A DNA stretch of 64,000 nt from Candidatus Giovannonibacteria bacterium RIFCSPLOWO2_02_FULL_45_28 (GCA_001780725.1 MFIM01000009.1:656-64655), one strand, 5' to 3'. Shown: positions 3,231-23,434, numbered from the stretch's first letter. Notes: a model not told the origin generated them from the letters alone. Numbers and translations: made by a program.

Positions 3231-3276
3231 AAATCTTACCGTTTCACAGCCATAGCGGTCAAGTGGTACAATTTTT
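3231..3276 (+). repeat. 46-nt hairpin plus T-run element, copy 1 (terminator-like, downstream of alaS)
   Basis: aaatcttaccgtttcacagccatagcggtcaagtggtacaattttt; 41/46 identical to copy 2 at 3903..3948. The stem is kept through G-T wobbles. Confidence 0.6.
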
Positions 3277-3293
3277 AATTGTTGTTAATTTGC

Positions 3294-3863
3294 TTATGTT
3301 AAGCTGAAATATTGTTTTAGATGCAATTCATTGTCAATTTGATGGGCGAGTATTGTTCGGACATACGGACGCAGATTGAAAAACTCAATTACAAAATCAA
3401 CTTCACTACCGCATTCAAAAGGATGGACAAAAACGCTTTTTTGTAGTCTATAAAAACCCATGTTTTTTAATGCTTTTGCTAAGGCATCCCGCGCTTTTTT
3501 ATGGCGCTCTGGAATGTCAAACAATATTATGCGCCATTTTTTATCCCATTTTTTCATTTCTGGCACCCTGATTGTGTCTATGTTGTAAGTTGTGGCCCTT
3601 TTGCGTCCTTGTTCTGTCAAAACGATGGTCGTAGTATCGTCTTTGTTTTCTTTAATATCAACAAGGCGCGATCTATACAAATTTCTTATTGTGCGTCTGA
3701 GAGTGTGCTGATTGATTTTCTGCCAATCTTTCTTTATTGTTTCTATGGTGCGCCAATATTGTTTTGGTGATCGAGCAAATCCTAAAACAACCCCTCCCAA
3801 CAACAGCAGCAAAACTTTTTGAGCAGTTGGCCCGAGCCTTTTCTCTAAATATTTTTTTCTCAT
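3294..3863 (-). CDS. PaaX-like putative transcriptional regulator (Cas2-fold C-terminal domain) with N-terminal hydrophobic segment
   Basis: WRIILFDIPERHKKARDALAKALKNMGFYRLQKSVFVHP resembles the PaaX/Cas2-like fold. The family assignment is from memory only. Confidence 0.4.
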   Translation of the reverse strand: MRKKYLEKRLGPTAQKVLLLLLGGVVLGFARSPKQYWRTIETIKKDWQKINQHTLRRTIRNLYRSRLVDIKENKDDTTTIVLTEQGRKRATTYNIDTIRVPEMKKWDKKWRIILFDIPERHKKARDALAKALKNMGFYRLQKSVFVHPFECGSEVDFVIEFFNLRPYVRTILAHQIDNELHLKQYFSLT

Positions 3864-3902
3864 TGATTTATATATTCATATTTACTAGTTGCGTGGCTGT
3901 GG

Positions 3903-3948
3903 AAATCTTACCATTTCACAGCTATAGCGGTCAAATGGTAAGATTTTT
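3903..3948 (+). repeat. 46-nt hairpin plus T-run element, copy 2
   Basis: aaatcttaccatttcacagctatagcggtcaaatggtaagattttt. Perfect 10-bp stem cttaccattt/aaatggtaag followed by a T-run. Confidence 0.6.
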
Positions 3949-4014
3949 GGGATGGTAATTTGGACTGGAGATAGTAATTTTGGGAGTTTTTTTGGGTGAA
4001 CTTGAGGATTTGAA

Positions 4015-4060
4015 GGAAAAAAATGAAAGAAAAAAGCCGGGGCTAAAGATTTGCCTCGGC
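4015..4060 (-). terminator. putative intrinsic terminator for the 4093..4398 gene
   Basis: On the minus strand, hairpin AGCCGAGG..CCCCGGCT followed by TTTTTTCTTTCATTTTTTT. Confidence 0.4.
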
Positions 4061-4092
4061 TGAATTGACCTTTTAATCTCAACCTTATCTGG

Positions 4093-4398
4093 CTATCGGA
4101 TTTTCCTTACAAAGATCCCCGGAAAGTCATTGAAAAGCTTACCTAGTCTATTGTGTGGTTTCACTAACTGAGGATCTATCTTAAACACGAAGCGGAGTGT
4201 GAGCATAATTGTTGCCCTTATCACCACCGCAGCAAACAAACCAGCGATTCCTCCCAAGAGAAATGACTCTGTAAGAAACAGCACGGACATTCCAACCAAA
4301 AGTAGGGTTGGTAGCCACGATTCATCCAACAAGAAACGACTGAATTCAGGGATTGGCTTAAGCTTCCTGGGTTCTTCCTTGTGCTGATTTTTGTCCAT
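4093..4398 (-). CDS. small hypothetical membrane protein (2 predicted TM helices)
   Basis: Strong GGAGGAG RBS 2 nt before the ATG. Hydrophobic segments LLLVGMSVLFL and GGIAGLFAAVVI. Terminator immediately downstream. Confidence 0.5.
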   Translation of the reverse strand: MDKNQHKEEPRKLKPIPEFSRFLLDESWLPTLLLVGMSVLFLTESFLLGGIAGLFAAVVIRATIMLTLRFVFKIDPQLVKPHNRLGKLFNDFPGIFVRKIR

Positions 4399-4493
4399 AA
4401 CTCCTCCGTGTGTGGTTTATTTCCAAGCTGCCGTGTAATTCGCTCGGCAACAAAGCGTTATCTCTGTTTTTTAAGCTAGCACACGACAAAAAT

Positions 4494-4511
4494 CTTGTCA
4501 ATAGTGACAAG
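4494..4511. promoter_or_regulatory. perfect inverted repeat CTTGTCA-ATAG-TGACAAG overlapping a putative -35 upstream of the aminotransferase gene
   Basis: 7-bp arms read directly from the sequence. A TGcTATATT extended -10-like box lies at 4526..4534. Confidence 0.3.
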
Positions 4512-4581
4512 TGGCGTGGTTTTGGTGCTATATTGTTGGTAGAATTTGTCCTGTTTCCGAAAGGATCGGAGGAATTTGAAA

Positions 4582-5895
4582 ATGCGATATTTGGGACCGA
4601 GAACGGCGGCTTATTACGAAAGAATGCGAAAAGTGCTTTTTTCTACAACGGTTGAAGATTATAGACCGGTATTGAAGAAAGGTGAGGGTGTGCGTGTTCA
4701 GGATATTGACGGCAACGAATTTCTTGATTTCACATCGCAAGTTGGCAAGACAAGCACTGGCCACAGACCGGAAGAAGTTGTAAGCGCTATTTGCGAACAG
4801 ACTAAGCATTTAATTGGGGTTATCGCCAACGATTTTCAATTTTCTTGCAAGCACAATACAGGAAGCCTTTTGGGAGAAGAAGTTTCTCCGGTGCGTCTCG
4901 CGGAAGAGCTGATTCGCCTGACTCCGGTGCCTCATCCGAAAAAAGTTATTTTTGATGTTTCCGGCGCGACTGCCGTAAACGCGGCCAGCAAGATTTGTGT
5001 GGCCGCAAAACCCAAGCGCGGTTGGTTCGGAGCTTTCAGGCTTGCTTTTCACGGACGGCACGGATTTAGCTTGGACATTTCCAGTTCCAAACAAATCCAC
5101 AAATTTCTGCATCGGGACGGAATTCCGGTTTTGCGTTTTCCATTCCCAGCTCGCGGAATGCCGTTTGAAAGATATAAAACTGAATTTTTAAATACGATAA
5201 ACGGATACAAAGACGCCATTAACGCCATTTTTGTTGAGATTGTGCAGGGCGAGGGGGGAATAAATATTCCGGAAATTAAGTCTTTGAATATGATCAGGCG
5301 TGAAATTAAGAAAATCGGAGCGCTTTTTGTGGCGGATGAAATTCAAACCGGTTTGGGAAGATGCGGGAAAATGTTTGCGTCAGAATATTTAAACGATCCG
5401 CCGGATATGATAATTCTTTCAAAGGCTCTTGGGGCCGGATTGCCGATAGGCGCGGTGGTTTCCAGATGCGATATTTTGCCGAACGGCGATATTCCAAAAA
5501 GCGCGCACTCCGGAACAATGCCAGCAGACCCTTTGGCTGTGGCCGCGGCGTTAGCCAATCTGCATTTAATTGAGGAAAAATGTCTTGTGCGAAATTCGGA
5601 AAAAATGGGGCGCTATCTTACGGAAAGTCTGCATCGGGTTGCTGATGGCAATCCTGTCGTGGTTGATATTGACAACCTTGGCGGGCTGATGGTGAGAGTT
5701 GAGATGGCATCCAGAGAGGCCGCTGAAAAAGTTATTTGCGCCTGCCTTTCCGAAGAACCCGGGCTTCTCCTTATAGAGGCTGGCCAGAAAACTATCCGCT
5801 TTATGCCCCCGCTAATTGTGACTAAAGAAGAAATTGATTTGGCGCTTTCTATTTTTGCAAAAGCTCTAAATTCACTAAAAAGCCCCCTATGGTGA
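4582..5895 (+). CDS. class III PLP-dependent aminotransferase (acetylornithine/GABA aminotransferase family)
   Basis: DEIQTGLGRCGKMFA and the PLP-lysine context ILSKALGAGLPIGAV. GGAGG RBS 8 nt before the ATG at 4582; the ORF track starts it at 4546. Confidence 0.75.
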   Translation: MRYLGPRTAAYYERMRKVLFSTTVEDYRPVLKKGEGVRVQDIDGNEFLDFTSQVGKTSTGHRPEEVVSAICEQTKHLIGVIANDFQFSCKHNTGSLLGEEVSPVRLAEELIRLTPVPHPKKVIFDVSGATAVNAASKICVAAKPKRGWFGAFRLAFHGRHGFSLDISSSKQIHKFLHRDGIPVLRFPFPARGMPFERYKTEFLNTINGYKDAINAIFVEIVQGEGGINIPEIKSLNMIRREIKKIGALFVADEIQTGLGRCGKMFASEYLNDPPDMIILSKALGAGLPIGAVVSRCDILPNGDIPKSAHSGTMPADPLAVAAALANLHLIEEKCLVRNSEKMGRYLTESLHRVADGNPVVVDIDNLGGLMVRVEMASREAAEKVICACLSEEPGLLLIEAGQKTIRFMPPLIVTKEEIDLALSIFAKALNSLKSPLW

Positions 5896-5938
5896 AGTGG
5901 GGGTTTTTGTTATGCCGGAAATTTGTTACAATATAATT

Positions 5939-7084
5939 ATGGCTTTTGGCTTTTTTAAGAAAGAGGGCGGCAAGACGCATATTTTGGCGATAGATTTGGG
6001 CACCGCCTCCATATCGGCAGCTATGGCTGTCAGGCAAGAAGGTAAAAAAACAGAAGTTTTGAAAGTTTTTAGATATCCAATAGATTTATTTGAATATCAA
6101 ATAGCGGGAGGTGCACAGCTGCCGCATATTTTTAAAGAAGGATTTTTAAGGGTTTTTAAGGACGCCCATGTGATTTCTGACCACTTGGACGTTGTAGCAG
6201 TTGGACTTTCCGACCCGTTTTTTTTGGATAAAAAAAAGCAAAGAAAAGTTACGCGTTCCAATCCGGCCGCGGCGATTACCGCCGAAGAGATAAATTCTTT
6301 GGTAAAAACATCGGAAAGCGAAATCGCGGCGCAAAATTTGGCAATTGTACGGCGGAACATTTTAAATACGCAAGTTAACGGTTATGATGTTAGAAACGCA
6401 TCGGGTTATAAAGGGAAGACTTTGGCAATAGAAATGATGTTTACTTCAATAAGCGCGACCTTGAAAGAATATATAGAGGGCGCGAAAGATAAATTTTTCC
6501 CAAAAAGCGCAATTTCTTATTACTCCGATGCCGCGATTTTCCGCGAAGCGCTGAGGGCCGCTGGAAATCTTTCCGAGCCGCGCATTGTAATTGACATAGG
6601 CGGAGAGGTGACAGGCATTTTCTTGGTCGACGATTTGATGTTTCAACACTACGGCGCGGCCGCTTTCGGCATACGCACCTTGGCGCGGAGAATTGCATCA
6701 TCTTTAAAAATAGATGCGGCAGACACAGATTCTTTGCTGAAAAAATATACAGCCGGCACTTTAGACGATGCCGCTCAAGCGAAAATTTCAAGGATTATCG
6801 CTTCGGCTTTGGCTGATTGGTGGTTGTCTTTGAAAAATACGTTTAAACAATTTGCGGAAACGGCCGCAATGAAGAAAGTAATGCTTTCCGGCGGCGGCGT
6901 TGATTTTCCGGCCTTCCCCACGTTTTTAAAAGAGAATTTTAAAAAAGATTTTAACATTGAAGTTGACGTCCTGATTTTGCGCGCCGAAGTCTTTAAGGAT
7001 TTTTTTGAGATAGCTTCTCAAAATTTGCTTTCCGGCGGCGGCGACATTGTTTTGGCTTCATTAGTTCTTCTTGCGCCATGGTGA
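5939..7084 (+). CDS. actin-like ATPase, PilM/FtsA-like
   Basis: MAFGFFKK..ILAIDLGTASI resembles a PilM N-terminus (M.F..KK..GIDIG.S.K). Likely start is the ATG at 5939. Confidence 0.5.
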   Translation: MAFGFFKKEGGKTHILAIDLGTASISAAMAVRQEGKKTEVLKVFRYPIDLFEYQIAGGAQLPHIFKEGFLRVFKDAHVISDHLDVVAVGLSDPFFLDKKKQRKVTRSNPAAAITAEEINSLVKTSESEIAAQNLAIVRRNILNTQVNGYDVRNASGYKGKTLAIEMMFTSISATLKEYIEGAKDKFFPKSAISYYSDAAIFREALRAAGNLSEPRIVIDIGGEVTGIFLVDDLMFQHYGAAAFGIRTLARRIASSLKIDAADTDSLLKKYTAGTLDDAAQAKISRIIASALADWWLSLKNTFKQFAETAAMKKVMLSGGGVDFPAFPTFLKENFKKDFNIEVDVLILRAEVFKDFFEIASQNLLSGGGDIVLASLVLLAPW

Positions 7085-8370
7085 ACAATAAGGAAAATTT
7101 CAATCCAAATATTGTGCCGTCCAGCGGCAAACGGATTATTTCTGATGTAATTGTAACTCCCCAAAAAGAGATTGCTTCACGGTTTTTTCGCGAGCCCAAT
7201 CCGATTATCAAGCCGCGCGCTCCAAAACGGAGAATTGGGCAAAAGAAAGCATTTTTTTCTTTTATGATTTTGCTTGTTTTTTTGCTTGGTTGGGGGACTC
7301 TGGGCGCGAGGATGGAGGTAATTTTATCGCCAAAAATAGTTGCCGCGCCGGTTGATAAGGCTTTGGCTTTAACTAAAATTCAGGGAAACGGCAAGCTTGT
7401 TTTTAGAACTTTGTCTTTGCCGGACGCCAGGAGCGGCGAGTTTAAGGCTACCGAAAAAAAATCGCAGGAAAGCCGCGCGGAAGGAATAGTGGTTATTTTT
7501 AATAAAGCCAAGGAATCGCAGGTTTTAATAGCCTCTACGAGGCTGGAGTCTTCCGATGGGAAAATTTACCGCATCCCGCGTACCATTGTTGTGCCCGCTT
7601 CAAAGCAGGAGGGCGGCAAAACTATTCCGGGCTCTGTAGAAATTACAGTTATGGCGGATAAAACCGGCAATGAATATAATTTGGGACTTTCAGATTTTAC
7701 CCTGCCGGGACTTAAGGGCTCGCCGAAGTACGAGTTGGTTTTCGGAAGATCCAAAACGGAAATGCGGGGAGGCGCATCCGGCGAACAAACGGTTGTGGGG
7801 AAAAGCGATGTAAAAGAAGCCGCCGCTCAATTATTTTTGCAAGCAGGCCGCGAAGCCGCTAATTTGTTATTAAACAAGATCCCGCCCGGCGAGTTTTTGT
7901 TGCCGCCATCGGCAGAGTATGCCGCTTTAAATGAAAACTTAAATCCGGCTGTCGGCGCGATTGCGGAACGTTTTAAATTTACAATGGAAGGCGAAGTAAA
8001 GGGTGCCACTGTATCGCGCGGCGAGCTTGAAAAAGCGCTTTTTAAAGACAGCCCGGTTGTTTCCGGTTTGGATATTTCCAAGTTGCGAATTAAGAATCTT
8101 GATAAGCTGGATATTAAAATAATAGGTTATAAATTTGAAGCTGCTAATTTCAATGCGCTGATTTCGGGGAAGATGGAGATAGAAGGGGTGGTTGAACCAG
8201 ATGCTGTTAAAAGTTTTTTGGAAGAGCGCGCTGTTTTAGACGCAGATTCGGTTTTAAGCGCTTTCCCGGAGCTTGCCAGAGCCGAGTTAAGGCTGCGGCC
8301 TTTTTTGGCAATGCCCTTTTATCGTTGGCTTCGCAGGGTCCCGACCCGTATTGACATTGTTTTAGAGTAA
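7078..8370 (+). CDS. hypothetical bitopic membrane protein (possible pilus-assembly partner of the PilM-like gene)
   Basis: About 60-aa cytoplasmic N-terminus, one TM (FFSFMILLVFLLGWGTLG), large extracytoplasmic domain. Start overlaps the upstream gene. Confidence 0.35.
   Translation: MVNNKENFNPNIVPSSGKRIISDVIVTPQKEIASRFFREPNPIIKPRAPKRRIGQKKAFFSFMILLVFLLGWGTLGARMEVILSPKIVAAPVDKALALTKIQGNGKLVFRTLSLPDARSGEFKATEKKSQESRAEGIVVIFNKAKESQVLIASTRLESSDGKIYRIPRTIVVPASKQEGGKTIPGSVEITVMADKTGNEYNLGLSDFTLPGLKGSPKYELVFGRSKTEMRGGASGEQTVVGKSDVKEAAAQLFLQAGREAANLLLNKIPPGEFLLPPSAEYAALNENLNPAVGAIAERFKFTMEGEVKGATVSRGELEKALFKDSPVVSGLDISKLRIKNLDKLDIKIIGYKFEAANFNALISGKMEIEGVVEPDAVKSFLEERAVLDADSVLSAFPELARAELRLRPFLAMPFYRWLRRVPTRIDIVLE
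8347..8366 (+). repeat. 20-bp direct repeat, copy 1 (3' end of the 7078..8370 gene)
   Basis: cgtattgacattgttttaga, identical at 8860..8879. Encodes the C-terminal RIDIVLE. Confidence 0.7.
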
Positions 8371-8386
8371 GTGCTATTTTGAGTAT

Positions 8387-8602
8387 ATGACCACGTTAAC
8401 CATTCCGCGGCCGATGATAAAAAGCGACGATTTAGTTGTTTTGGGTCGCAAGGATTTTGAGCGGTTGGCGAAAGAAAACAAAGAGTTGCGTTTGGCGGTC
8501 AAAGCAATCGTAGTTGGGGAATTGGAATTGCGCCACGGCAAGACTCGGACTTTTAAGGATTTCCTGAAGACAGAGTTTCCCAAATATGCCAAAAGTTTCT
8601 AG
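8387..8602 (+). CDS. putative antitoxin of a type II TA pair
   Basis: 71 aa. Overlaps the downstream RelE/ParE-like gene by 17 nt. Confidence 0.45.
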   Translation: MTTLTIPRPMIKSDDLVVLGRKDFERLAKENKELRLAVKAIVVGELELRHGKTRTFKDFLKTEFPKYAKSF

Positions 8603-8855
8603 CTCTCATACGACATCGCATTTTGAAGATCAATTTGAGAAATTACCAAAAAGCGTTCAGAGGATCGCGGTTAAAAAAATTCTCTTATTTGAAGAAAACC
8701 AGTTTCATCCAAGTTTAAATACCCATAAACTAAAAGGCCCATTGGCTAATTTCTGGGCTTTTTCTATAAGTAAGGACTATAGAGTTTTATTTAGGTTTCT
8801 AGAAAATAACGCGGTTATTTATTATGATATTGATACTCATGACATCTATAAATAG
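8586..8855 (+). CDS. RelE/ParE-family type II toxin
   Basis: KLKGPLANFWAFSISKDYRVLFRF..VIYYDIDTHDIYK fits the RelE/ParE pattern (L.G.L..W...I..DYR..........V....I..H...Y). Confidence 0.6.
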   Translation: MPKVSSSHTTSHFEDQFEKLPKSVQRIAVKKILLFEENQFHPSLNTHKLKGPLANFWAFSISKDYRVLFRFLENNAVIYYDIDTHDIYK

Positions 8856-8859
8856 CGGT

Positions 8860-8879
8860 CGTATTGACATTGTTTTAGA
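8860..8879 (+). repeat. 20-bp direct repeat, copy 2 (after the TA pair)
   Basis: cgtattgacattgttttaga followed by agggagttaa, which would encode RIDIVLEGS-stop. Confidence 0.7.
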
Positions 8880-8890
8880 AGGGAGTTAAG

Positions 8891-8911
8891 ATGAAAGCTA
8901 TTCACGTTTAA
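8891..8911 (+). CDS. 6-codon uORF (MKAIHV) translationally coupled to infA through a TAATG overlap
   Basis: AAGGGAG RBS, then ATG at 8891, stop TAA 8909..8911 overlapping the infA ATG at 8911. Confidence 0.3.
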
Positions 8912-9132
8912 TGGCTGCCTTGTCTAAAGATGCGCTTATAAAAGAGGGTCAAGTGATTGAGGCGTTGCCTTCGGCAACGTTCCGTGTTTTGTTGGAAGAC
9001 GGCTCTGAAGTTATTGCGCACCTATCCGGCAAAATGCGGGTTAATTACATTAAAGTGCTGGTAGGAGACAGGGTTTTTGTTCAATTCAGCCCATACGACG
9101 CAACAAAAGGGCGGATTATAAAAAGATTATGA
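8911..9132 (+). CDS. infA: translation initiation factor IF-1
   Basis: [59 protein letters not shown]. Confidence 0.9.
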
Positions 9133-9136
9133 ACTT

Positions 9137-9250
9137 ATGAGAGTAAGAGCTTCGGTAAAACCAAGATGCAATAAGTGCAAGGTCGTACGCAGAAGCGGAC
9201 GAGTTTTTATAACTTGTCCGAATCCGAAGCACAAACAGAGGCAAGGGTAA
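9137..9250 (+). CDS. rpmJ: ribosomal protein L36
   Basis: Missing from the ORF track (37 aa): [37 protein letters not shown]. Confidence 0.85.
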
Positions 9251-9251
9251 C

Positions 9252-9638: not shown

Positions 9639-9648
9639 AGGAATTGGC

Positions 9649-16095: not shown

Positions 16096-16131
16096 TTATT
16101 AAATTATTAAAAAATTAATTAAAACAAAACT

Positions 16132-18012
16132 ATGAGTAAAATTTTAGGAATAGACTTGGGGACGACTAACTCGGCGATGGCGATTGTTGAGGGGGGTGTC
16201 CCGAAAATATTGGAAAACGCGGAAGGGGCGCGGACAACGCCTTCAATTGTGGCGTTTTCAAAATCGGGAGAAAGATTGGTCGGGCTTTTGGCGAAAAGGC
16301 AGGCGGTGACCAATCCCAGAAACACTATTTTTTCGGTAAAACGCTTAATCGGAAGGAAAGCGAGCGATGCGGAAGTGAAACGCGACAAAACCTTGCTCCC
16401 TTATGAGATTAAGGAATCCGCTAACGGCGGGGTGGAGGTTAAGATCAATGAAAAGTGGTACCGGCCGGAAGAGGTCTCCGCAATGATTTTGGCTAAATTA
16501 AAAGCGGACGCGGAGGCGAAACTCGGAGAAAAAATTGAAGATGCAATAATTACCGTGCCGGCTTATTTTGACGATTCGCAGAGACAAGCGACTAAGGCGG
16601 CCGGCGAGATTGCCGGGTTTAAAGTAAAAAGAATTTTAAACGAGCCGACCGCGGCTGCGCTGGCTTACGGCCTCAATAAAAAGCGGAACGAAAAAATCGT
16701 GGTTTATGATTTTGGCGGCGGGACTTTTGATCTGTCTGTTTTGGAGATCGGTGACGATACAATAGAAGTCCGCGCAACCGGCGGAGACACTCATTTGGGC
16801 GGGGATGATTTTGACCAAAAAATAATCCAGCATATCGCCGCGGAATTTAAAAAAGAATCGGGCATTGACGTAACTAAAGATGTTTTGGCGCTTCAGAGGC
16901 TGAAAGAGGCCGCGGAAAAAGCCAAGCATGAACTTTCAACCGCAATTGAGACGGAAATAAACATCCCATTTATCACATCCGACGCCTCCGGGCCGGTGCA
17001 TCTTCAGCAGAAAATGGCGAGAGCCAAACTGGAGGATTTGGTGCGCGACTTTTTGGATAAATCTTTTGAGATTACAAAAAATGTCGTTCGGGAAGCGAAA
17101 TTTGAACTAAAAGACATTGATGAAATTGTGTTGGTGGGCGGACAGACAAGGATGCCCGCAATTCAGGAAGGAATTAAAAAACTTTTTGGCAAGGAAGCTA
17201 ACCTTTCCATTAACCCGGACGAAGTTGTTGCTGTTGGAGCGGCGGTTCAGGGTGGAATTTTGCAAGGGGACGTAAAAGACGTTTTGCTTTTGGACGTGAC
17301 CCCTCTTTCTTTGGGAATTGAAACCTTGGGAGGCGTTATGACAAAAATTATTGAAAAAAATACGACGGTGCCGGTTGCGCGTTCGCAGGTTTTTTCAACT
17401 GCGGCTGACAACCAAACCTCGGTTGAAATCCATGTTTTGCAGGGCGAGCGCGAGATGGCTGGCGACAACAAAACTCTGGGACGGTTCATTTTGGACGGAA
17501 TCCCGCCTTCTCCGAGGGGTATGCCGCAAGTTGAGGTATCTTTTGACATTGACGCCAACGGCATTTTATCGGTGAAAGCTAAGGACAAAGCCACAAACAA
17601 AGAGCAGTCCATCCGCATAGAGGCCTCCACGGGGCTTTCTAAAGACGAAATTGAAAAAATGAAGAGAGACGCCGAGGCGCATGCGGACGAAGATCGCCAG
17701 AAAAAAGAGCTGATTGAATCCAAAAATCGCGCGGATGCGCTGGTTTATACAGCGGAGAAATCTTTGCGAGACGCGGGGGACAAAGTTGAACAGGCGATAA
17801 AAGACGAAGTTAATCAAAAAATAGAAGCGCTTAAAAAAGCGAAAGAGGGAAACGATATTTCCGAAATCCGCAACGCCGAAACCGCTTTGGCACAATCCCT
17901 CTCAAAGATAGGAGAAGCGATGTATAAGCAGGGCGGCGCGCAAGGCGAAAAACCCGAAGAAAAAGGCCCGGACATTAAAGATGCCGATTTTAAGGAGGAG
18001 GGCGATAAGTAA
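16132..18012 (+). CDS. dnaK: molecular chaperone DnaK (Hsp70)
   Basis: [25 protein letters not shown], and a C-terminal EEVD-like acidic tail. Confidence 0.95.
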
Positions 18013-18015
18013 ATT

Positions 18016-18588
18016 ATGAAACGAGTTTTTATAGTTCATGGTTGGGATGGCTATCCGGAAGAGGGATGGTTTCCGTGGCTTAAAAAAGAACTTGAGTCGA
18101 AAAACTTTAAGGTTTTTGTTCCGCAACTTCCTGATTCCGCAAATCCGAGGATTGAGAAATGGGTTCCAGCTCTTGCGGGCACCGTTGGTGTTGCGGATGA
18201 GCAGACCTGTTTTGTTGGGCATAGTATTGGTTGCCAAACCATCGCTCGATATCTAGAAACCTTGTCTGAAGGACAAAAAGTTGGGGGCGCGGTGTTTGTT
18301 GCTGGTTTTTTTGAGCGAGTGAATCTTGAAGAAGATTTTAATGTGCAAGAAACTAGCCGCTTATGGCTTAAAGCGCCGCTTGATTTTAGTAAAGTGAAAT
18401 CGCATTTACCAAAAAGTATTGCCATTTTTTCTGATAATGATCCGTATGTTCCGCTCGATAACCAAAATGATTTTCGAGAAAAATTAGGTTCGGAGATTAT
18501 TGTAGAGAAATCAAAGGGTCATTTTAGCGGCCCGAGCGACGGCATTACTAAATTGCCAGTTGTTTTAGAATCTGTTTTGAAATTATGA
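18016..18588 (+). CDS. alpha/beta hydrolase, YdeN/RBBP9-like serine hydrolase
   Basis: GHSIG nucleophile elbow (CFVGHSIGC); 190 aa. Wedged between dnaK and dnaJ with 3-4-nt junctions. Confidence 0.55.
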
Positions 18589-19661
18589 AAGACTATTACG
18601 AAATTTTGGGGGTGGGGAAAAATGCGTCTCAAGACGAGATTAAGCGCGCGTACAGAAAGTTGGCGCATGAGCATCACCCCGATAAAAAAGGGGGGGATGA
18701 GAAAAAGTTTAAGGAGATAAACGAGGCTTATCAGATTTTGGGAGACGAGCAAAAACGCCAGCAGTATGATAGGTTTGGCAAGACTTTTGCCGGAGGCGGC
18801 CAATCCGGCTTTTCCGGATTTGAAGGCTTTGACTTTTCAAATTTTGGAGGTGGGTTTAACGCGGACCTAGGCGATATCTTCGAAGATTTTCTTGGCGGGC
18901 TTGGCGGATTTTCCGCCCGAGGCGGACAAGGGCGCAGGCGCGAACGGGGCAGCGATATTTCTTTGGGTATTGACGCATCGTTTCAGGAATCCGTTTTCGG
19001 CGGGAGACGGAGCGTTGTTATTGAAAAAACTTCAAAATGTGAGATCTGCGGCGGCAACGGCGCAGAACCCGGAACTAATCTGAAAAAGTGTGCGACTTGC
19101 CAAGGCACAGGTACCGTCCGCGAGATGCGGCGTTCGCTTTTCGGAGCGTTTACAGCGCTTTCGGAATGTTCTCATTGCCGCGGCAGGGGAGAATCACCGG
19201 AACGCGCATGCAAACATTGCCGCGGAGCCGGGATTTTAAGAAAATCCCAAGGCGTGGAAATTATGATTCCTCCGGGCATTCGCGACGGAGAAGCAATCAA
19301 ACTTACAGGTTTAGGAGAAGAAGTTCAAAGAGGACAAGCAGGAGATCTTTATGTTAGGATTCACGTTTTACCGCATCATATTTTCAGGCGCGAGGGGTAC
19401 GATATTTTGATGGATTTGCATCTGCCGCTTTCAAAAATGCTTTTGGGCGGAGAAGAAATGATAGAAACACTGGAAGGAAAAATTTCGGTGCGTATTCCGG
19501 AGCTTTCCAAAGTGGGAGATTTTCTGCGTCTTCGCGGAAAGGGGGTTCCAAGGGGCAGGGGAAGAGGGGATTTGTTAATAAGGCTTTTTCCCAAGCTTCC
19601 CAAAAAGCTCACGCCGCGGGCAAAAGAAATACTTTCGGATTTGGAGAAAGAGGGGTTATAA
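18585..19661 (+). CDS. dnaJ: co-chaperone DnaJ
   Basis: J-domain with HPD (HHPDKK), a G/F region, and four CxxCxGxG zinc-finger repeats. Confidence 0.9.
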
Positions 19662-19669
19662 TGTAACTT

Positions 19670-20158
19670 ATGGCATACTTATCTTTATTGAAAAACCCGG
19701 CGTGGGATATGGTGTTTGTTTTTATGCTGGTTGCGGCAGGATTTTTTTGGGGCATTTCCGGCGGCAAGAAAAAAATGGCGATGGGTATTGTTGCGATTTA
19801 CGTTCTTACGGCTCTCTTCCCGTTTGTGTCGGTTGATTACCTTGCTTCCGGGCGCGCGCCAAACGAAGCCTTTATGTTCGGGGCAGGAGCGTTTTTGATT
19901 CTTTTGGTTCTGCTGGCGTTATTTTTGCTGCGCGCTTTCCGCGGCGTTTGGAAAGAAGACGGCGCTTGGTGGGAAATTCTGGTTTTTGCGATTTTGGCAG
20001 CTGGGTTTTTAATGACTTCCCTGATCGGTCTTGCCCAGCCGTCTATCGCAAAAAATAATTTTTTAAACCTTTCTCCATTAACTCTCAAACTCTTCGCCGA
20101 CCCAATCATCGCCAAATGGTGGACAATCCTCCCGATTTTCGGCGTGATGTTTTTGTAG
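19670..20158 (+). CDS. hypothetical polytopic membrane protein
   Basis: 4-5 hydrophobic helices; no recognisable motif. Confidence 0.4.
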   Translation: MAYLSLLKNPAWDMVFVFMLVAAGFFWGISGGKKKMAMGIVAIYVLTALFPFVSVDYLASGRAPNEAFMFGAGAFLILLVLLALFLLRAFRGVWKEDGAWWEILVFAILAAGFLMTSLIGLAQPSIAKNNFLNLSPLTLKLFADPIIAKWWTILPIFGVMFL

Positions 20159-20246
20159 CGCACGAATGTCGGCACTAGCTAGTTTTGCGGCCCAAATAGA
20201 AAATAAAAACAAAATCTGCCGGCTCCGATTCCCGCTGAAGTTCTCT

Positions 20247-20348
20247 TTATTGGCGCTTGTTTTTGGAGATTATGGTAGGCAAAGCCATCAGAACAATGGT
20301 CAAAGCAATGATAGCCCCGATAAGATAAATGATGAGCATGCTATTCAT
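20247..20348 (-). CDS. possible 33-aa hydrophobic peptide (MNSMLIIYLIGAIIALTIVLMALPTIISKNKRQ)
   Basis: Single TM-like peptide. No clear RBS. Confidence 0.2.
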   Translation of the reverse strand: MNSMLIIYLIGAIIALTIVLMALPTIISKNKRQ

Positions 20349-20470
20349 ACTTATATTTTAGCTGATAACCAACCGTGCTTCAGATAATTTTAATCCCATA
20401 GAATTTTATTCTAGCGCCTTGCTAACAACAGTCAAATAAATAGCCTCTCGCGCGTGTGGATAAACCCGTT

Positions 20471-20480
20471 GGGGGGGGGG
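20471..20480 (+). repeat. G10 homopolymer spanning the -35/spacer of the promoter of the 20503 gene
   Basis: gggggggggg read directly. Sits inside TTGGGG(-35-like)..17 nt..TGATACAAT. Confidence 0.85.
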
Positions 20481-20487
20481 CGTTATA

Positions 20488-20496
20488 TGATACAAT
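20488..20496 (+). promoter_or_regulatory. extended -10 (TGATACAAT) 6 nt upstream of the ATG; leaderless transcript likely
   Basis: Read directly. No Shine-Dalgarno sequence before the ATG at 20503. Confidence 0.45.
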
Positions 20497-20502
20497 GAAT
20501 TT

Positions 20503-22869
20503 ATGGTGAATTTTCGGATAAAATTAGCTTTGTTTTTAGTGATTTTCCTCTCTCTCTCTCTCGCACAGGCCAATGCCGCTTTTGACTTTTCTTTTGCCAA
20601 TCTTTCTCAATCCAACTCTCTTGCCTCCGTATGGGAAAATGTAAAAGACGACATACAAGACTCATGGGAAAACATAAAAGAGTGGCTACTTCCCGCTCCG
20701 CCGCCCCCATCAACCCCGCCAGGCGAGCAAAAACCGTCGCCCTCATCAACGCGCGGGAAAACATCCAATGTTGAATCCCCAAAAACATCGGATGTTGAGG
20801 AGCGCGTTTTCCCGGGCAACGATTTCGAAGAAGAAAGCAAGACAATCACATCTGAACAACCTCTCGCAACCGAGCGCGCTCCGGAACGCGTCACAGTTTC
20901 CACTAACGGAATTACAGAAGCTCGTCTTTTGCAGTCGCTCAATGCCTTGCGCGAAGAGCTATTGGATCGCTTCTCGCAGATTATCGTCTCCGCGCCCGCG
21001 CCGCTTACATTTCATGGTCCTGCGGAAACAACGCCTGCTTCCGTCGCTATGCTGGCTTTATCCCAAAGAATCAACAACCTATCCGGCAGTTCCAATTCCC
21101 CGCTTACCATCTCCGGAGCAACTTTCTCCGGCTCCAATACTTTTAGCCTTACGGATGCCGATGTTCCCGACGGCATCACTGCTTCCAGCTATCTCCCGCT
21201 TTCCGGAGGCACGCTCTCGGGCGCGCTTACCGGAACCAATCTTACTCTCTCCGGCAACCTCACCGTTTCCGGAGCTCAAACTCTTTCCGGCGCCATCACT
21301 ATTCCCTATCTCACCGCGACCTCCACCACCCAGCCCTCCACTTTCGCCTACAACGTCGGCATCGGGACGACGAGTCCGTGGGGGTTATTATCAGTACATC
21401 CCGACGGGATTACCGGTCCCGCTTTTGTGGTCGGTTCATCAACTGCAACAAACTTTATCGTAACTAACGGCGGCAACGTCGGGATTGGGACGACGAGTCC
21501 GACGGCGCTATTGCATGTGGCGCATACCACCGATATTAGTAAAACCTTAATTAACGCAACTTATCTCGGTTTCTCCAAATTTAAGTTGAGATACGATGAG
21601 GGTTCTAATTACCACATTTTGGAAATCTTTAACAGCACGCTTGCTGGGTTTGGTATTACTCTTAATGCAACAGATTGGACCAGTCGCACTGTGACAATAC
21701 GGGGACATATTGATGCTTCGATACCGCTGACCGTTCAATCTAATGACAACACTCCATCACTTGACATTTTCCAGGTGCGCAGGAGTGGCACTCTAATAGA
21801 CCTTGTGGTTAATTCAAGCGGCTTTGTAGGCATAGGCACATCCACCCCAAATTGGCTCCTGCAGGCGGCTGGAACGCGTCCGTTTTTTACCCTCTCCGAC
21901 ACCGCGGCGGGAACGGATTTGAAACATTGGTATTTGTCATCTCAAGGCGGCAATCTGTATGTGGGCACCACCACCGATGCCTATGCCACCACCACCAATT
22001 ATCAAGCATTGACTATATTAAATAACGGCAACGTCGGCATCGGGACGACGAGTCCATGGCGCACCTTTTCGGTGGCGGGGACGGTGGGATTCTCTTCTAC
22101 CCTAACTTCTTCTGCAACGGGAGATTACCTTTGCATAAATACCGACACATACGAGGTCTCAAGAGGCGCGGGAAGCATCTGCACCACTTCTTCCGAAAGA
22201 TACAAAGAGAATTTTGAAGAACTCGCCTACGGACTGGATTCCGTACTCAAACTTCACCCAATCTCATTTGAATACAAGCCCGAGCTTAATATCGGCCCAG
22301 GCCGCAGAATCGGTTTCACTGCCGAGGAAGTGATTAATGTCATTCCCGAAGCGGTTGTGCTTGATAAAGAAGGTCTGCCCAGCGGGGTTGAATACGAAAA
22401 ACTAACCGCGGTTTTGGCAAAAGCCATACAGGAGCTTTACCAAAAAATTATCTCGCTTTTTGATAAAGACAAGGAGCAAGATCAGCGCATCGCTGAGCTT
22501 GAAGCGCGTATAAATGCTCTGGAGGGAGGAGCGCCGGCGGCGGATACCTCCGCCTCCGCCGAGGCTTCGGCGGACAAGGAACCCCCGACCATCACCATCA
22601 ACGGCAACAATCCCGCGAGAATAGAAGTCGGCGCGGCATACAGCGACCTTGGCGCAACCGTCACTGATAATGTCAATGACAATCTCGGTATTGAAATGTT
22701 TGTCGGAGAAACGCCCATGGAGCAGGCATATATTGATACGAGCGAACCGAATACTTACCACATCACTTACCGCGCAACCGATCAGGCGGGTAATGTCGGC
22801 GAGGCGGTGCGTACGGTGGAGGTGTATAGCCAAGCGACAACAACTTTATCCGAAATCCCGTCTCCGTAA
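20503..22869 (+). CDS. secreted tail-fibre-like surface protein with peptidase S74 intramolecular-chaperone domain and C-terminal Ig-like (DUF5011-like) domain
   Basis: Signal peptide MVNFRIKLALFLVIFLSLSLAQANA; Pro-rich linker; three-to-four GNVGIGTTSP repeats; SERYKENFEEL..LHPISFEYKP..GFTAEEVINVIPEAV..AIQELYQKI matches the intramolecular-chaperone domain; PPTITINGNNPARIEVGAAYSDLGATVTDNV..HITYRATDQAGN is Ig-like. Confidence 0.7.
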   Translation: MVNFRIKLALFLVIFLSLSLAQANAAFDFSFANLSQSNSLASVWENVKDDIQDSWENIKEWLLPAPPPPSTPPGEQKPSPSSTRGKTSNVESPKTSDVEERVFPGNDFEEESKTITSEQPLATERAPERVTVSTNGITEARLLQSLNALREELLDRFSQIIVSAPAPLTFHGPAETTPASVAMLALSQRINNLSGSSNSPLTISGATFSGSNTFSLTDADVPDGITASSYLPLSGGTLSGALTGTNLTLSGNLTVSGAQTLSGAITIPYLTATSTTQPSTFAYNVGIGTTSPWGLLSVHPDGITGPAFVVGSSTATNFIVTNGGNVGIGTTSPTALLHVAHTTDISKTLINATYLGFSKFKLRYDEGSNYHILEIFNSTLAGFGITLNATDWTSRTVTIRGHIDASIPLTVQSNDNTPSLDIFQVRRSGTLIDLVVNSSGFVGIGTSTPNWLLQAAGTRPFFTLSDTAAGTDLKHWYLSSQGGNLYVGTTTDAYATTTNYQALTILNNGNVGIGTTSPWRTFSVAGTVGFSSTLTSSATGDYLCINTDTYEVSRGAGSICTTSSERYKENFEELAYGLDSVLKLHPISFEYKPELNIGPGRRIGFTAEEVINVIPEAVVLDKEGLPSGVEYEKLTAVLAKAIQELYQKIISLFDKDKEQDQRIAELEARINALEGGAPAADTSASAEASADKEPPTITINGNNPARIEVGAAYSDLGATVTDNVNDNLGIEMFVGETPMEQAYIDTSEPNTYHITYRATDQAGNVGEAVRTVEVYSQATTTLSEIPSP
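20548..20562 (+). repeat. (CT)7 dinucleotide tract inside the signal-peptide coding region (encodes LSLSLS)
   Basis: cctctctctctctctc read directly. Confidence 0.8.
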
Positions 22870-22887
22870 AAAATTATTTTTCTATAA

Positions 22888-22969
22888 TCCGCCCACCAGG
22901 AATCGAACCTGGAACCTTCTCCTTTCCGCCAAAGGACGGATCAGCCTCCGGCTGAAAAAGGGAGCTGCT
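22888..22969 (-). pseudogene. tRNA-Lys-derived 3' fragment (D-stem 3' side to acceptor end) carrying a 31-nt insertion in the anticodon loop
   Basis: T-arm and acceptor identical to the intact copy exactly 100 bp downstream. Shares an identical 57-bp segment (22913..22969) with the 5' fragment at 23343..23399. Confidence 0.6.
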
Positions 22970-22987
22970 TATAGAAACAGCGCTTTC

Positions 22988-23060
22988 TCCGCCCACCAGG
23001 AATCGAACCTGGAACCTTCTCCTTAAAAGGGAGCTGCTCTGCCAATTGAGCTATGGGCGG
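22988..23060 (-). tRNA. tRNA-Lys (anticodon UUU)
   Basis: Folded by hand: 7-bp acceptor CCGCCCA/TGGGCGG, D-arm GCTC..GAGC, anticodon loop CTTTTAA, T-arm CCAGG-TTCGATT-CCTGG, discriminator A. No encoded CCA. Confidence 0.85.
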
Positions 23061-23083
23061 AGGAAGCGCTGTGCTTCCACTAC

Positions 23084-23329
23084 TTAGCTTTTTAATATTT
23101 CATCCAAAAACTTTCTGCCAACGCCGGATTTCAAAAAATTTTCACGCTTTCGAGCATTCGTCTTATCGGCACAACTTTCTTGATACACCAACTCAAACGG
23201 CCCGTTTCTTCTCGTGAATTTATTGGAACCATAGTTGTGTTTCTTTAACCTTTCCCCTGGCAATAAATCTGTGCTTCCTACATAACGCTTACCATTTTTT
23301 AAACTTTTTAATACATATATGTACGACAT
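23084..23329 (-). CDS. GIY-YIG nuclease-domain protein (YazA/YhbQ-like, 81 aa)
   Basis: YIYVLKSLKNGKRYVGSTDLLPGERLKKHN...GPFELVY.E is the GIY-YIG pattern. Confidence 0.7.
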   Translation of the reverse strand: MSYIYVLKSLKNGKRYVGSTDLLPGERLKKHNYGSNKFTRRNGPFELVYQESCADKTNARKRENFLKSGVGRKFLDEILKS

Positions 23330-23342
23330 ATTTTCTTAGCGT

Positions 23343-23434
23343 AACCTTCTCCTTTCCGCCAAAGGACGGATCAGCCTCCGGCTGAAAAAGGGAGCTGCTC
23401 TGCCTCCGCCAGCCGGCGGATGAGCTATGGGCGG
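23343..23434 (-). pseudogene. tRNA-Lys-derived 5' fragment (acceptor to variable loop) with a 17-nt hairpin insertion in the D-loop and a 31-nt insertion in the anticodon loop
   Basis: Reverse complement CCGCCCATAGCTCA[TCCGCCGGCTGGCGGAG]GCAGAGCAGCTCCCTTTT[TCAGCC..GGCGGA]AAGGAGAAGGTT aligns to the intact tRNA-Lys apart from the bracketed inserts. Confidence 0.6.

Follow-up and report, generated by a model that had tools for sequence, protein, structure and literature searches.

The window, which is the whole stretch of 64,000 nucleotides analysed here, comes from the genome of a Candidatus Giovannonibacteria bacterium (CPR) and contains three direct repeats that bracket accessory genes. The three repeats are explained by three separate causes: a PaaX-like regulator gene with its own palindromes, an old duplication that formed a promoter slot upstream of infA, and a GIY-YIG nuclease cassette that splits a tRNA gene. 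Taken jointly, this three-part explanation is regarded as reasonably probable. Two of the units, the PaaX-like and the GIY-YIG/tRNA one, act like small mobile modules that have gone unrecognised. All the repeats are far longer than chance would produce; when the window was shuffled 30 times with a Markov model, exact direct repeats within 3 kb reached at most 17 nt.

3231-3276 and 3903-3948: repeat 1 (PaaX-like unit), 46 nt, 89% identity
8347-8366 and 8860-8879: repeat 2 (TA/infA slot), 20 bp exact, CGTATTGACATTGTTTTAGA
22913-22969 and 23343-23399: repeat 3 (tRNA/GIY-YIG unit), 57 nt exact
22888-22924 and 22988-23024: further repeat, missed by the first-pass annotation, 37 nt exact

The positions that the first-pass annotation had given for the three repeats were confirmed, as were the intervening genes: a PaaX-like gene, a RelE/HigB-like toxin-antitoxin (TA) pair, of which the toxin matches lie below the curated cut-offs, and a GIY-YIG gene with a tRNA. 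It had also seen no recognisable transposase or integrase in any unit, and Pfam scans of the three neighbourhoods likewise detected no family of either kind. The units are not classical transposons or insertion sequences: there is no transposase, and the repeats (20, 46 and 57 nt) differ in origin.

The same annotation proposed that all three units may have arisen by a single shared process, for which it named template switching, microhomology-mediated capture and an unrecognised tiny mobile element as candidates. The lack of a recognisable recombinase in each unit and the length of the direct repeats, beyond what chance allows, are consistent with this proposal. However, the PaaX repeat is an element-borne palindrome found family-wide at unrelated loci, the TA repeat is a duplicated native gene end and promoter that relatives have in common by descent, and the 57-nt repeat belongs, by inheritance, to a cassette that occurs in many phyla. 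Moreover, no sequence or structural motif common to the three repeats was found. A single duplicative mechanism for repeats so different in nature, origin and motif is highly improbable, and it is already largely refuted.

The PaaX-like gene and its palindromes

The features of the first unit are as follows (no strand is assigned to the palindromes):

3231-3276: palindrome copy 1, degenerate, DNA hairpin dG -3.2 kcal/mol, between the alaS stop (3216) and the stop of the PaaX-like gene (3294)
3294-3863, minus strand: PaaX_M/Cas2-like gene, 189 aa, with a Cas2-like domain in the centre, behind an N-terminal region (PF20803, 75 bits)
3903-3948: palindrome copy 2, perfect 14-bp arms AAATCTTACCATTT / AAATGGTAAGATTT, core CACAGCTATAGCGGTC, dG -13.3, z -7.2

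The match to the PaaX_M/Cas2-like domain relates the protein to the PaaX repressors; however, with about 190 aa it is without the PaaX C-terminal domain. The score against the PaaX equivalog TIGR02277 (37.6 bits; cut-off 264.55) indicates that it is not a PaaX orthologue, and the Cas2 model TIGR01573 (34.7 bits) covers residues 110-148 only. No paa genes were found near the gene, no cas1 among the Pfam-scanned neighbours, and no array-like direct-repeat family in positions 1-26000. An ORF at 29961-30530, also of 189 aa, was considered as a second PaaX-like copy and is unrelated.

The first-pass annotation had reported no inverted repeats and had read the 46-nt repeat as a copied alaS terminator. 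The former was mistaken, because the 46-nt repeat is itself a palindrome. The latter would mean that a native hairpin terminator was duplicated when the PaaX-like gene was inserted in or beside it, as might be suggested by the location of copy 1 right after alaS and by a T-run that follows both copies on the plus strand. However, in a relative (L100) alaS is followed directly by the next gene and this empty site has no hairpin; homologues at unrelated loci are flanked by the same core palindrome; and the terminator scan reported neither copy, both of which have AT-rich stems around a 16-nt core. The duplication of a native terminator is judged very unlikely, and the two copies do not have the features of intrinsic terminators.

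The palindrome-gene-palindrome layout, with an upstream and a downstream direct repeat, was found in 48/74 homologous loci. The arms are variable but complementary, and the core is conserved as GCGATAGC, GCTATAGC or CGATCG. The L100 genome has a homologue (61% identical) at another locus, after rpsI, with palindromes of its own. No more copies of the 46-nt palindrome are present elsewhere in the window. These comparisons suggest that the PaaX-like gene travels together with its own long palindrome, present in two copies.

Promoter-like hexamers (TTGACC-18-TAAGAT) lie inside copy 2 (3934->3905) and are directed into the PaaX-like gene. The upstream palindrome, holding these hexamers, is most likely the operator of the winged-helix regulator; such a promoter-overlapping palindrome resembles an autoregulatory operator, as in the PaaX repressors. 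The variable arms fit a structure-based role equally well. The downstream copy might serve as another site or fold into a hairpin at the 3' end of the RNA. Unlike in PaaX, the palindrome is found on both sides and appears to move with the gene. No description of a palindrome-flanked PaaX-like module was found in the open-access literature searched.

The cargo slot upstream of infA

The second unit is located between a gene specific to Giovannonibacteria and infA:

7078-8370, plus strand: 430-aa gene, no Pfam match, Giovannonibacteria-specific, its last codons being repeat copy 1
8347-8366, plus strand: 20-bp repeat copy 1, encoding ...RIDIVL(E*), with a -35 box TTGACA at 8351-8356
8387-8855, plus strand: cargo, comprising a 71-aa ORF (8387-8602; putative antitoxin, no family) and an 89-aa RelE/HigB/YafQ-like ORF (8586-8855)
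8860-8892, plus strand: repeat copy 2 (8860-8879) within the infA-operon promoter TTGACA-17-TAAGAT (8864-8892)
8911: infA start

The two cargo ORFs are co-oriented and overlap by 17 nt, with the antitoxin-like ORF first, which is the layout of type II TA systems. The second ORF scored 24.3 against a HigB-like model (cut-off 27), 20.7 against YafQ (30) and 23.5 against TIGR02385 (27.9). As in RelE/ParE modules of hot spots, a small overlapping ORF pair occupies a variable slot between conserved genes; unlike in those modules, the slot is defined by a duplicated overlap of gene end and promoter, and the first ORF has no family. A promoter-like site for the cargo is made up of the TTGACA of copy 1 and TG-TATTTT.

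In three relatives (L098, L099 and L101) the slot is empty and the gene end overlaps the TTGACA-17-TAAGAT promoter; in three others (L097, L096 and L100) other cargo lies between copies of the same segment. The most economical reading of these alignments would be one old duplication of the overlap between gene end and infA promoter, followed by cargo turnover. The duplicated overlap might then act as a slot, where cargo gains a -35 box and neither the gene end nor the infA promoter is disrupted, and the cargo could since have been exchanged among lineages. The identity of the two copies would not imply recency, because both are under selection (as gene end and as -35 box). The view that the repeat was copied from the end of the native upstream gene was correct; its interpretation as a fresh insertion scar did not hold, and an old duplication kept by selection is favoured.

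Alternatively, site-specific insertion upstream of infA may have been repeated, duplicating about 20 bp each time, and the repeats would be independent in each lineage. For example, four genomes hold different cargo at the same nucleotide position. Furthermore, both copies in L096 carry the lineage-specific bases GCAGTA, a pattern better explained by independent duplication or by gene conversion than by one old event, and the repeat there has 24 bp rather than 20. However, the left-junction sequence, including the -10 region of the cargo, is homologous in the window, L096 and L100; the filled sites are confined to the closest relatives; and selection on both copies explains their identity. Repeated insertion is considered unlikely, and one old duplication with cargo turnover is preferred.

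The GIY-YIG gene and a probable split tRNA-Lys

The third unit is interpreted as a small selfish cassette around a stand-alone GIY-YIG gene, living inside tRNA genes, and its movement is one that we infer. The locus in the window contains the following features, all on the minus strand:

23442-23470: promoter-like site TTGCCC-17-TAAAAT, immediately upstream of F5
23343-23435: F5, 5' part of tRNA-Lys (positions 1 to ~47)
23405-23420: 16-nt palindrome in the D-loop of F5
23355-23385: 31-nt double palindrome in F5, after anticodon-loop position 36
23084-23329: stand-alone GIY-YIG nuclease gene, 81 aa (PF01541)
23062-23072 and 22977-22987: complementary leader and trailer, enclosing the intact tRNA-Lys
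22987-23061: intact tRNA-Lys(UUU), 68.5 bits
22888-22969: F3, 3' part of tRNA-Lys (positions ~24-76)
22925-22955: double palindrome in F3, the same 31 nt as in F5

The cassette unit is ~430 bp, and its repeats lie in the anticodon-arm region. The 57-nt direct repeat corresponds to the two cassette junctions, each with a 30/31-nt double palindrome. It had been described as a tRNA segment; this holds for the tRNA sequence within it, whereas the conserved 31-nt double palindrome inside is no tRNA sequence. A Rfam scan at E<=10 matched the intact tRNA only, with no known RNA or small ribozyme in the 31-nt insert. A hammerhead ribozyme was rejected on a core mismatch, by inspection by eye. A spliced, intron-containing tRNA was also rejected, since an intact copy always adjoins the interrupted pieces and the pieces are truncated.

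Four independent assemblies are identical over 1046 nt of the tRNA locus and the architecture is common to relatives, which rules out an assembly artefact. Only the copy number of a 100-nt unit (spacer plus F3), found as tandem repeats in some assemblies, differs among them; this difference could be real or an assembler loop. No recombinase family was found in the 20-kb neighbourhood of the locus.

The nuclease belongs to the GIY-YIG superfamily (PF01541, 54.1 bits; cut-off 22.6). Residues Y5, Y16, R27, H31, N32, E51 and E63 are invariant in an alignment of 16 homologues, and the protein is related to the UPF0213 structures 1zg2 and 1ywl (E about 1e-6). The group I intron endonuclease model TIGR01453 matched with 23.1 bits (cut-off 56.05) over residues 1-41 only. 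Homing endonucleases combine a nuclease with a DNA-binding domain; the 81 aa of this protein comprise the catalytic domain alone. Stand-alone Slx1-like GIY-YIG proteins were described as the minimal GIY-YIG form (PMC1564403). The UPF0213/Slx1-like proteins BH0048 and EF2693 show detectable similarity and the same minimal single-domain architecture; however, tRNA linkage, hairpins or mobility are unreported for them in the literature searched.

The nuclease matches in species-representative genomes number 227, and the module is counted in no fewer than 227 genomes at species level, from several phyla. The module consists of a 5' tRNA fragment with a ~30-nt double palindrome, the ~80-aa GIY-YIG gene and an intact tRNA; the Lys type adds a downstream 3' tRNA fragment bearing the same palindrome. 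The same architecture with other sequences was found in another Giovannonibacteria, a Yanofskybacteria and an Omnitrophota genome, and a second Giovannonibacteria genome has the element at a syntenic site. A same-strand tRNA is located directly 3' of the ORF in 61/83 loci, and in 22 loci the ORF ends 10 nt inside the tRNA. Upstream of the nuclease gene are 5' fragments of the same tRNA, which end at the palindrome. The leader/trailer helix covaries in 11/14 Lys-type loci; it is absent in 47/49 loci outside the Lys clade. No description of the GIY-YIG/tRNA/double-palindrome module was found in the open-access literature searched, an absence that is not proof.

In the window, the overlapping parts of F5, F3 and the cargo tRNA do not differ in sequence, and the distinction between resident and cargo tRNA comes from relatives only. 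In L036 and L016, the acceptor-stem states of F5 and F3 match each other and differ from those of the cargo tRNA; therefore, F5 and F3 of these relatives represent a split resident gene, and the intact tRNA is imported. The first-pass annotation had suggested dating the insertions by synteny with close relatives. The empty sites at alaS and infA came from such comparison; no empty tRNA-Lys site was retrieved in a search via homologues of the neighbouring DDAH-like gene, which yielded two syntenic relatives with uvrA upstream and no tRNA there.

The GIY-YIG gene might instead be a domesticated host gene, transcribed together with tRNAs and having a role related to them, such as processing or repair; the fragments and hairpins would then be debris or regulatory leaders. 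The protein is strongly conserved (65-85% identity among homologues) and tightly coupled to an intact tRNA, with which even the stop codon is in common; the hairpins lie just 5' of the start codon, where they could control translation; and a role of prokaryotic Slx1-like proteins in RNA metabolism was speculated in earlier work (PMC1564403). However, close relatives of the nuclease are found in separate phyla beside different tRNAs, and one genome may contain two cassette copies. The split resident genes with imported cargo tRNAs represent insertion events, the nested remnants of past events and the contig breaks are typical of mobile DNA, and the distribution across phyla is patchy. A domesticated host gene is accordingly improbable, and the selfish cassette is preferred.

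Palindromes and possible movement of the cassette

The 30/31-nt double palindrome has the consensus [TC(A/C)GCC-NNN-GGC(T/G)GA] twice, with a few leftover tRNA bases beside it. Adjacent double hairpins lie <=150 nt upstream in 51/82 loci, compared with 0/370 control windows. The palindromes number 154 per 107 kb near the nuclease gene and 3 per 161 kb in the outer flanks, which is a roughly 75-fold enrichment; most loci have a palindrome on one side of the nuclease gene only. Solo palindromes are clean 30-nt insertions, in either orientation, at T^A-type sites of alaS, intergenic DNA and several tRNA loops, with no consistent target-site duplication; in alaS and mnmA of relatives the palindrome is in frame. 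The double palindrome is read as a separable mini-insertion, with the nuclease most likely its recogniser, although the roles proposed for the palindrome are conjecture.

Solo palindromes are also present in IMG/VR contigs. A phage vector was rejected: IMG/VR contained only one distant homologue of the nuclease, and its ten palindrome matches had no nuclease gene or tRNA in the stretch retrieved.

Small palindromic elements are known from other systems, including the Rickettsia palindromic elements, the GC clusters of yeast mitochondria, the double-hairpin elements of fungal mitochondria, and REP/RAYT. The REP sequences gather around the gene of their own mobilising enzyme. In contrast to these elements, the unit here is 15 nt, usually paired to 30 nt, with a consensus of its own, TC(A/C)GCC-N3-GGC(T/G)GA; and unlike REP/RAYT with its HUH transposase, the palindromes cluster round a GIY-YIG nuclease gene.

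For the Lys type, the proposal is that the cassette interrupts the anticodon loop of the resident tRNA-Lys, with the break at position 36/37. The cargo would comprise the nuclease gene and a complete tRNA-Lys in a processing-type leader/trailer helix, and the host would retain tRNA function because the cassette carries this complete tRNA. Transcription may begin at the resident tRNA promoter and cross first the 5' fragment, then the nuclease gene and finally the cargo tRNA. The nuclease is supposed to break DNA in or beside tRNA genes, and repair from a cassette-bearing copy, with short co-conversion tracts, would spread the cassette in the manner of free-standing GIY-YIG homing endonucleases like T4/T6 SegB. 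The tandem F3 units could result from unequal exchange between the pieces of tRNA that are repeated, and the double palindrome may disrupt both the homology and the target sequence of the dead tRNA pieces. Homing-type copying by repair has indirect support from the split resident tRNAs with imported cargo and from short co-conversion in L036 and L016. Because the cargo tRNA does not differ in sequence from the presumed target, a simple homing model requires an unexplained immunity.

A transposon-like composite would use the double palindromes as ends: the nuclease would cut there, and the segment from palindrome to palindrome would enter sites of the T-run^A type, for example in the anticodon loop of tRNA-Lys, as single palindromes would likewise do. 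The Lys-type loci have palindromes at both junctions, with element-type inner remnants, and the left junction of L036 is resident-type to within 5 nt of the palindrome. The clean 30-nt insertions at T^A-type sites and the enrichment round the nuclease gene also agree with a composite. However, the palindrome is one-sided at most loci, target-site duplication was not seen, and strand transfer by a lone nuclease domain has no known example. Moreover, a stretch of 9-10 nt past the right palindrome of L036 is cargo-type, as repair-based copying predicts. The composite is rather unlikely, and homing-type copying is retained as the working proposal.

The cassette resembles known systems in part. SegB cuts inside tRNA genes and favours inheritance of its own gene and flanks (PMC2330249, PMC13096335); it also drives tandem amplification of the tRNA+segB unit (PMC13096335, PMC2330249). 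As with T4/T6 SegB, a GIY-YIG gene amid tRNA genes, the gene here adjoins a tRNA and pieces of tRNA are duplicated; the varying tandem copy number of the 100-nt tRNA-fragment unit is similar to the SegB amplification. However, SegB is encoded by phages and includes a DNA-binding region within its roughly 220 aa, whereas the protein here has 81 aa with the catalytic domain only and is chromosomal (CPR, Omnitrophota and other phyla). The cassette also differs in splitting a tRNA gene while providing a replacement tRNA, and in its association with a conserved double palindrome. Like the tRNA-targeting integrative elements, it brings tRNA sequence that keeps the target functional, and the displaced fragment forms the direct repeat; unlike them, it has no integrase and no attL/attR at the 3' end of the tRNA, measures only ~430 bp, contains either a complete tRNA or the 5' part, and is inserted in tRNA loops rather than at the 3' end.

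A broader and more speculative possibility, which we consider somewhat doubtful, is that the 15/30-nt palindromes and the ~80-aa nuclease form a previously unrecognised mobile system of ultra-small bacteria ('break and rescue'). The nuclease would mobilise palindromes into tRNA loops, intergenic DNA and, in frame, essential genes; palindrome pairs would bring in the nuclease gene with a replacement tRNA, and the host would then depend on the cassette.

If these proposals are true, a tiny nuclease cassette would reside in tRNA genes across hundreds of species, which belong to the Patescibacteria, the Omnitrophota, the Planctomycetota and further phyla, and the host would be kept alive by the cassette supplying the tRNA that it destroys. 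Where other homing endonucleases rely on self-splicing introns, the cassette would be a compact new answer to the same problem. It would also provide a route for tRNA genes between genomes, and might explain why contigs break and tRNA genes are wrongly annotated when genomes are assembled from metagenomes. Moreover, palindromes that add 5-10 residues in frame to AlaRS and other proteins would be a source of small insertions in CPR proteins. The PaaX/Cas2-like module and the infA slot bear on how accessory genes might be placed in very small genomes without classical recombinases.

The direct repeats and the PaaX-like module

The window matches contig MFHX01000026.1 (GCA_001780605.1), part of a Candidatus Giovannonibacteria (CPR/Patescibacteria) metagenome-assembled genome from the Rifle aquifer. 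A repeat search of the window recovered all three direct repeats at the positions claimed in the first-pass annotation:

3231-3276 and 3903-3948: locus 1 (PaaX-like gene), 46-nt repeat, 89% identity
Starts 8347 and 8860: locus 2 (TA pair between a 430-aa gene and infA), exact 20-mer
Starts 22913 and 23343: locus 3 (GIY-YIG/tRNA-Lys cassette), exact 57-mer

A further exact 37-mer (starts 22888 and 22988), absent from that annotation, was also found. The longest exact direct repeat within 3 kb was no more than 17 nt in 30 shuffles of the window. The gene identities were upheld as well, including the PaaX_M/Cas2-like gene, the RelE/HigB-like pair (weak scores), and the GIY-YIG gene with tRNA-Lys(UUU). 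The observation stands; however, its interpretation as one possible common duplicative mechanism was only partly right, and no single mechanism underlies the three repeats.

At locus 1, a perfect palindrome with 14-bp arms and the core CACAGCTATAGCGGTC (DNA hairpin of -13.3 kcal/mol, z -7.2) makes up copy 2 of the repeat, and copy 1 is a decayed version of it (-3.2 kcal/mol). The repeat had been read as a copied alaS terminator hairpin, but neither copy resembles an intrinsic terminator in a terminator scan, and in the relative L100 alaS is separated from the next conserved gene by 18 nt that contain no hairpin. The L100 PaaX-like gene (61% identical to that of the window) is located after rpsI and is bracketed by its own palindrome pair, with the core GCTATAGCG in common and arms that are different yet complementary. 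In the relatives L098 and L099, a different PaaX_M gene (30% identical, opposite strand) follows alaS, also between two palindrome copies (core CGATCG). Of the 74 metagenomic PaaX-like homologues whose flanks were long enough to compare, 48 carry a significant direct repeat shared by the upstream flank (-30 to -130) and the downstream flank (+5 to +110). The repeated sequences are palindromic, with arms that vary and a core of GCGATAGC, GCTATAGC, GCGATCGC or CGATCG; none was found in the gene bodies of the same homologues. Since the palindromes are family-wide and the L100 alaS site is empty, the repeat belongs to the PaaX-like gene module and not to alaS. The position of the module differs between related genomes.

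Copy 2 contains TTGACC-18-TAAGAT directed into the PaaX-like gene, and the simplest reading is that the upstream copy is a putative promoter-operator for the winged-helix PaaX-like protein. Promoter-like hexamers occur in both directions in each copy (3905-3944 and 3233-3272), because the repeat is a palindrome. Judged from these hexamers, transcription running antisense to either the PaaX-like gene or alaS could start from the downstream copy. By its profile scores, the protein is not a PaaX orthologue, and it is not a CRISPR Cas2 either.

The stretch 3949-5895, from the PaaX-like module to a 395-aa gene, is a second variable region. It encodes a 101-aa ORF without family match and a class-III aminotransferase, and is missing from L098, L099 and L100; in the related locus L101, the aminotransferase is present and is followed by a restriction-modification system. 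Elsewhere, the gene of a 788-aa surface protein (Peptidase_S74 and Ig-like domain) contains a ~50-nt segment three times (21340-22067), with an exact core of 27 nt, and a 779-aa variant was called in one JGI assembly.

The cargo slot upstream of infA

In L098, L099 and L101, the orthologue of the 430-aa gene leads straight into infA without cargo. Its last codons overlap the promoter TTGACA-17-TAAGAT (TAATAT in L099), and in L098 its stop codon falls within the -10 box. In three other relatives and in the window, the segment comprising the gene end, -35 box and spacer is doubled, with cargo between the copies:

Window: RelE-like pair
L097: CrtO-like ORF and 106-aa ORF
L096: 363-aa ORF and HicB-like ORF
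L100: about 430 nt with small ORFs

The 430-aa gene stays in frame through copy 1, which combines with TG-TATTTT into a promoter-like site for the cargo; the infA promoter stays whole in copy 2. The filled-slot relatives are the closest to the window (their 430-aa proteins are 72, 55 and 52% identical), compared with 49, 49 and 40% for the empty-slot relatives. The sequence directly after copy 1 is also homologous among the window, L096 and L100. For these two reasons the favoured reading is that one old duplication made the slot, both copies were kept by selection, and the cargo was exchanged later. Lineage-specific bases common to both copies in L096 make repeated duplication or gene conversion a rival reading. 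With both copies under selection, the perfect 20-mer identity is uninformative on age.

The GIY-YIG/tRNA cassette

Locus 3 consists of the following elements, read along the minus strand:

23470-23442, minus strand: promoter-like site
Minus strand: F5, the 5' tRNA-Lys fragment, positions 1 to about 47
Minus strand: 81-aa GIY-YIG gene
Minus strand: 11-nt leader, intact tRNA-Lys(UUU), complementary trailer
Minus strand: 7-nt spacer
Minus strand: F3, the 3' tRNA-Lys fragment (from about position 24 to 76), carrying the double palindrome seen in F5

Two palindromes interrupt F5: one of 16 nt in the D-loop, and a double one of 31 nt following position 36. F5 and F3 share the 57-mer, which comprises the anticodon-arm segment with its palindrome; F3 shares the 37-mer, made up of the T-arm and acceptor end, with the intact tRNA. 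Of these copies, the intact one alone is scored as a tRNA. The spacer and F3 form a 100-nt unit with extra tandem copies in three assemblies (two or more each), and many independent assemblies stop 150-420 nt after the GIY-YIG gene. The copy difference may be true variation or an assembler loop via the 37-nt repeat. In this respect, L004, L005 and L009 differ from L001-L003 and L010 around 22870-22990.

The module is recurrent and interrupts resident tRNA genes. Different sequences with the same layout occur in a second Giovannonibacteria genome, where the site is syntenic and has two F3 units, in a Yanofskybacteria genome, where the site is another one, and in an Omnitrophota genome, where the tRNA is tRNA-Val. 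Species-representative genomes yielded 227 matches when scanned, of which 80 were examined together with the window and three earlier loci (one duplicate locus excluded); they span Patescibacteria, Omnitrophota, Planctomycetota and other phyla. A same-strand tRNA (Asn, Lys, Val, Ala, Ile and others) lies directly 3' of the GIY-YIG ORF in 61/83 loci. The ORF ends exactly 10 nt into the tRNA in 22 loci (e.g. L058, L050, L066, L042 and L089), so that the conserved U8-A9-G10 serve as its TAG stop codon. Most loci have an upstream 5' fragment of the same tRNA, with hairpins at 12/13, 17/18, 26/27 or 36/37; a few are mirrored, the intact tRNA preceding the GIY-YIG ORF and the interruption lying in the T-loop of a 3' fragment. 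Perfect adjacent double hairpins were found in the 150 nt before the start codon at 51/82 loci versus 0/370 control windows, and other clades have longer-stem variants. The neighbour-joining tree of the nuclease, which is weak with only 80 residues, showed a coherent Lys clade over several CPR lineages, and close nuclease relatives beside different tRNAs and in different phyla. One MAG (JAUYHD01) carries two cassettes, in tRNA-Lys(CUU) and tRNA-Lys(UUU), with the same extra ~80-nt hairpin-rich insertion in the F3 T-loop of both (L016 and L027).

Lys-clade loci always retain complete outer arms (1-36 upstream, 37-76 downstream), and the inner remnants beside the palindromes are variable in length. 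In the acceptor stems of L036 and L016, F5 and F3 agree (C3 with G70, T7 with A66), whereas the intact tRNA between them differs (G3 with C70, A7 with T66); L036 has an additional compensated D-stem difference. Since the fragments match each other and not the intact tRNA, F5 and F3 together are a resident gene split at 36/37. These paired bases indicate that the intact tRNA of L036 and L016 arrived with the cassette. In L036, 9-10 nt past the right palindrome are of the cargo type, compatible with repair copying with short conversion tracts. The Lys-clade cargo tRNA lies inside a leader/trailer helix whose sequence changes from locus to locus (median 9 Watson-Crick pairs, at least 7 in 11/14 loci; median elsewhere 4).

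The double palindrome and the proposed mobility of the cassette

The double palindrome marks the interruption points. Its consensus unit is TC(A/C)GCC-N3-GGC(T/G)GA, mostly paired to exactly 30 nt and inserted cleanly after a T in either orientation. Within the window, the consensus double form occurs at locus 3 only; the examined loci together had 154 units per 107 kb in the vicinity of the nuclease gene versus 3 per 161 kb in the outer flanks. Eight distinct IMG/VR virus-classified contigs (among L102-L111; 37-45% G+C) also carry the 30-nt double palindrome, mostly at AT-rich intergenic sites and none beside a GIY-YIG gene or tRNA in the stretch retrieved. The L109 copy may be in frame in an acidic ORF.

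The palindrome also occurs within protein-coding genes. For example, alaS of L098 (Giovannonibacteria, CP066687.1) has an exact 30-nt in-frame double palindrome, TCCGCCAAAGGCGGA TCCGCCTTTGGCGGA (L098:7863-7892), adding SAKGGSAFGG, which is missing from the orthologues of the window, L099 and L100. In mnmA of L100, the 16-nt palindrome TCCGCCAGCTGGCGGA occurs twice (L100:3744-3759 and L100:4479-4494), coinciding with the insertions GPPAG and PPAG (4-5 residues) relative to three orthologues; the same form is in the D-loop of the window F5 (23405-23420). In the window dnaJ (18912-18926), TCCGCCCGAGGCGGA encodes SARGG within FSARGG; it is also present in L098, and is either old or native. The L098 dnaJ has 13 extra residues, SAQGAGGSQAFGW, resembling a decayed double palindrome. 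Two more palindromes of this type, TCCGCCGGTTGGCGGA and CCGCCGGAAAGGCGG, occur in the window at 60199-60214 and 38870-38884.

The module encodes a nuclease with intact catalytic residues, and the Lys type also carries a complete tRNA. The closest precedent is SegB of T4/T6, likewise a GIY-YIG enzyme in a tRNA cluster, which cleaves within tRNA genes and causes tandem amplification of tRNA+segB (PMC2330249, PMC13096335). In the most likely model, the resident tRNA promoter would drive transcription across the nuclease gene and into the cargo tRNA; tRNA-gene DNA would be broken by the nuclease, and repair-based copying would spread the cassette. Unequal exchange between repeats would yield the tandem F3 units. 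The palindrome would be recognised by the nuclease, and would disrupt the target sequence and the homology of the dead tRNA pieces. Three problems face this model: the nuclease protein has no DNA-binding domain, the nuclease would be expected to attack the intact cargo tRNA too, and no empty tRNA-Lys site was recovered among the syntenic relatives retrieved (n=2, tRNA absent there). A serious rival is a transposon-like model, in which the palindromes form the ends of the element.

Neither the GIY-YIG/tRNA/double-palindrome module nor the palindrome-flanked PaaX-like module was found described in open-access papers and preprints. The tRNA cassette is classed here as a variant of the free-standing GIY-YIG homing-type elements at tRNA genes, and there is a real chance that the cassette and the palindromes together represent a new kind of mobile system.
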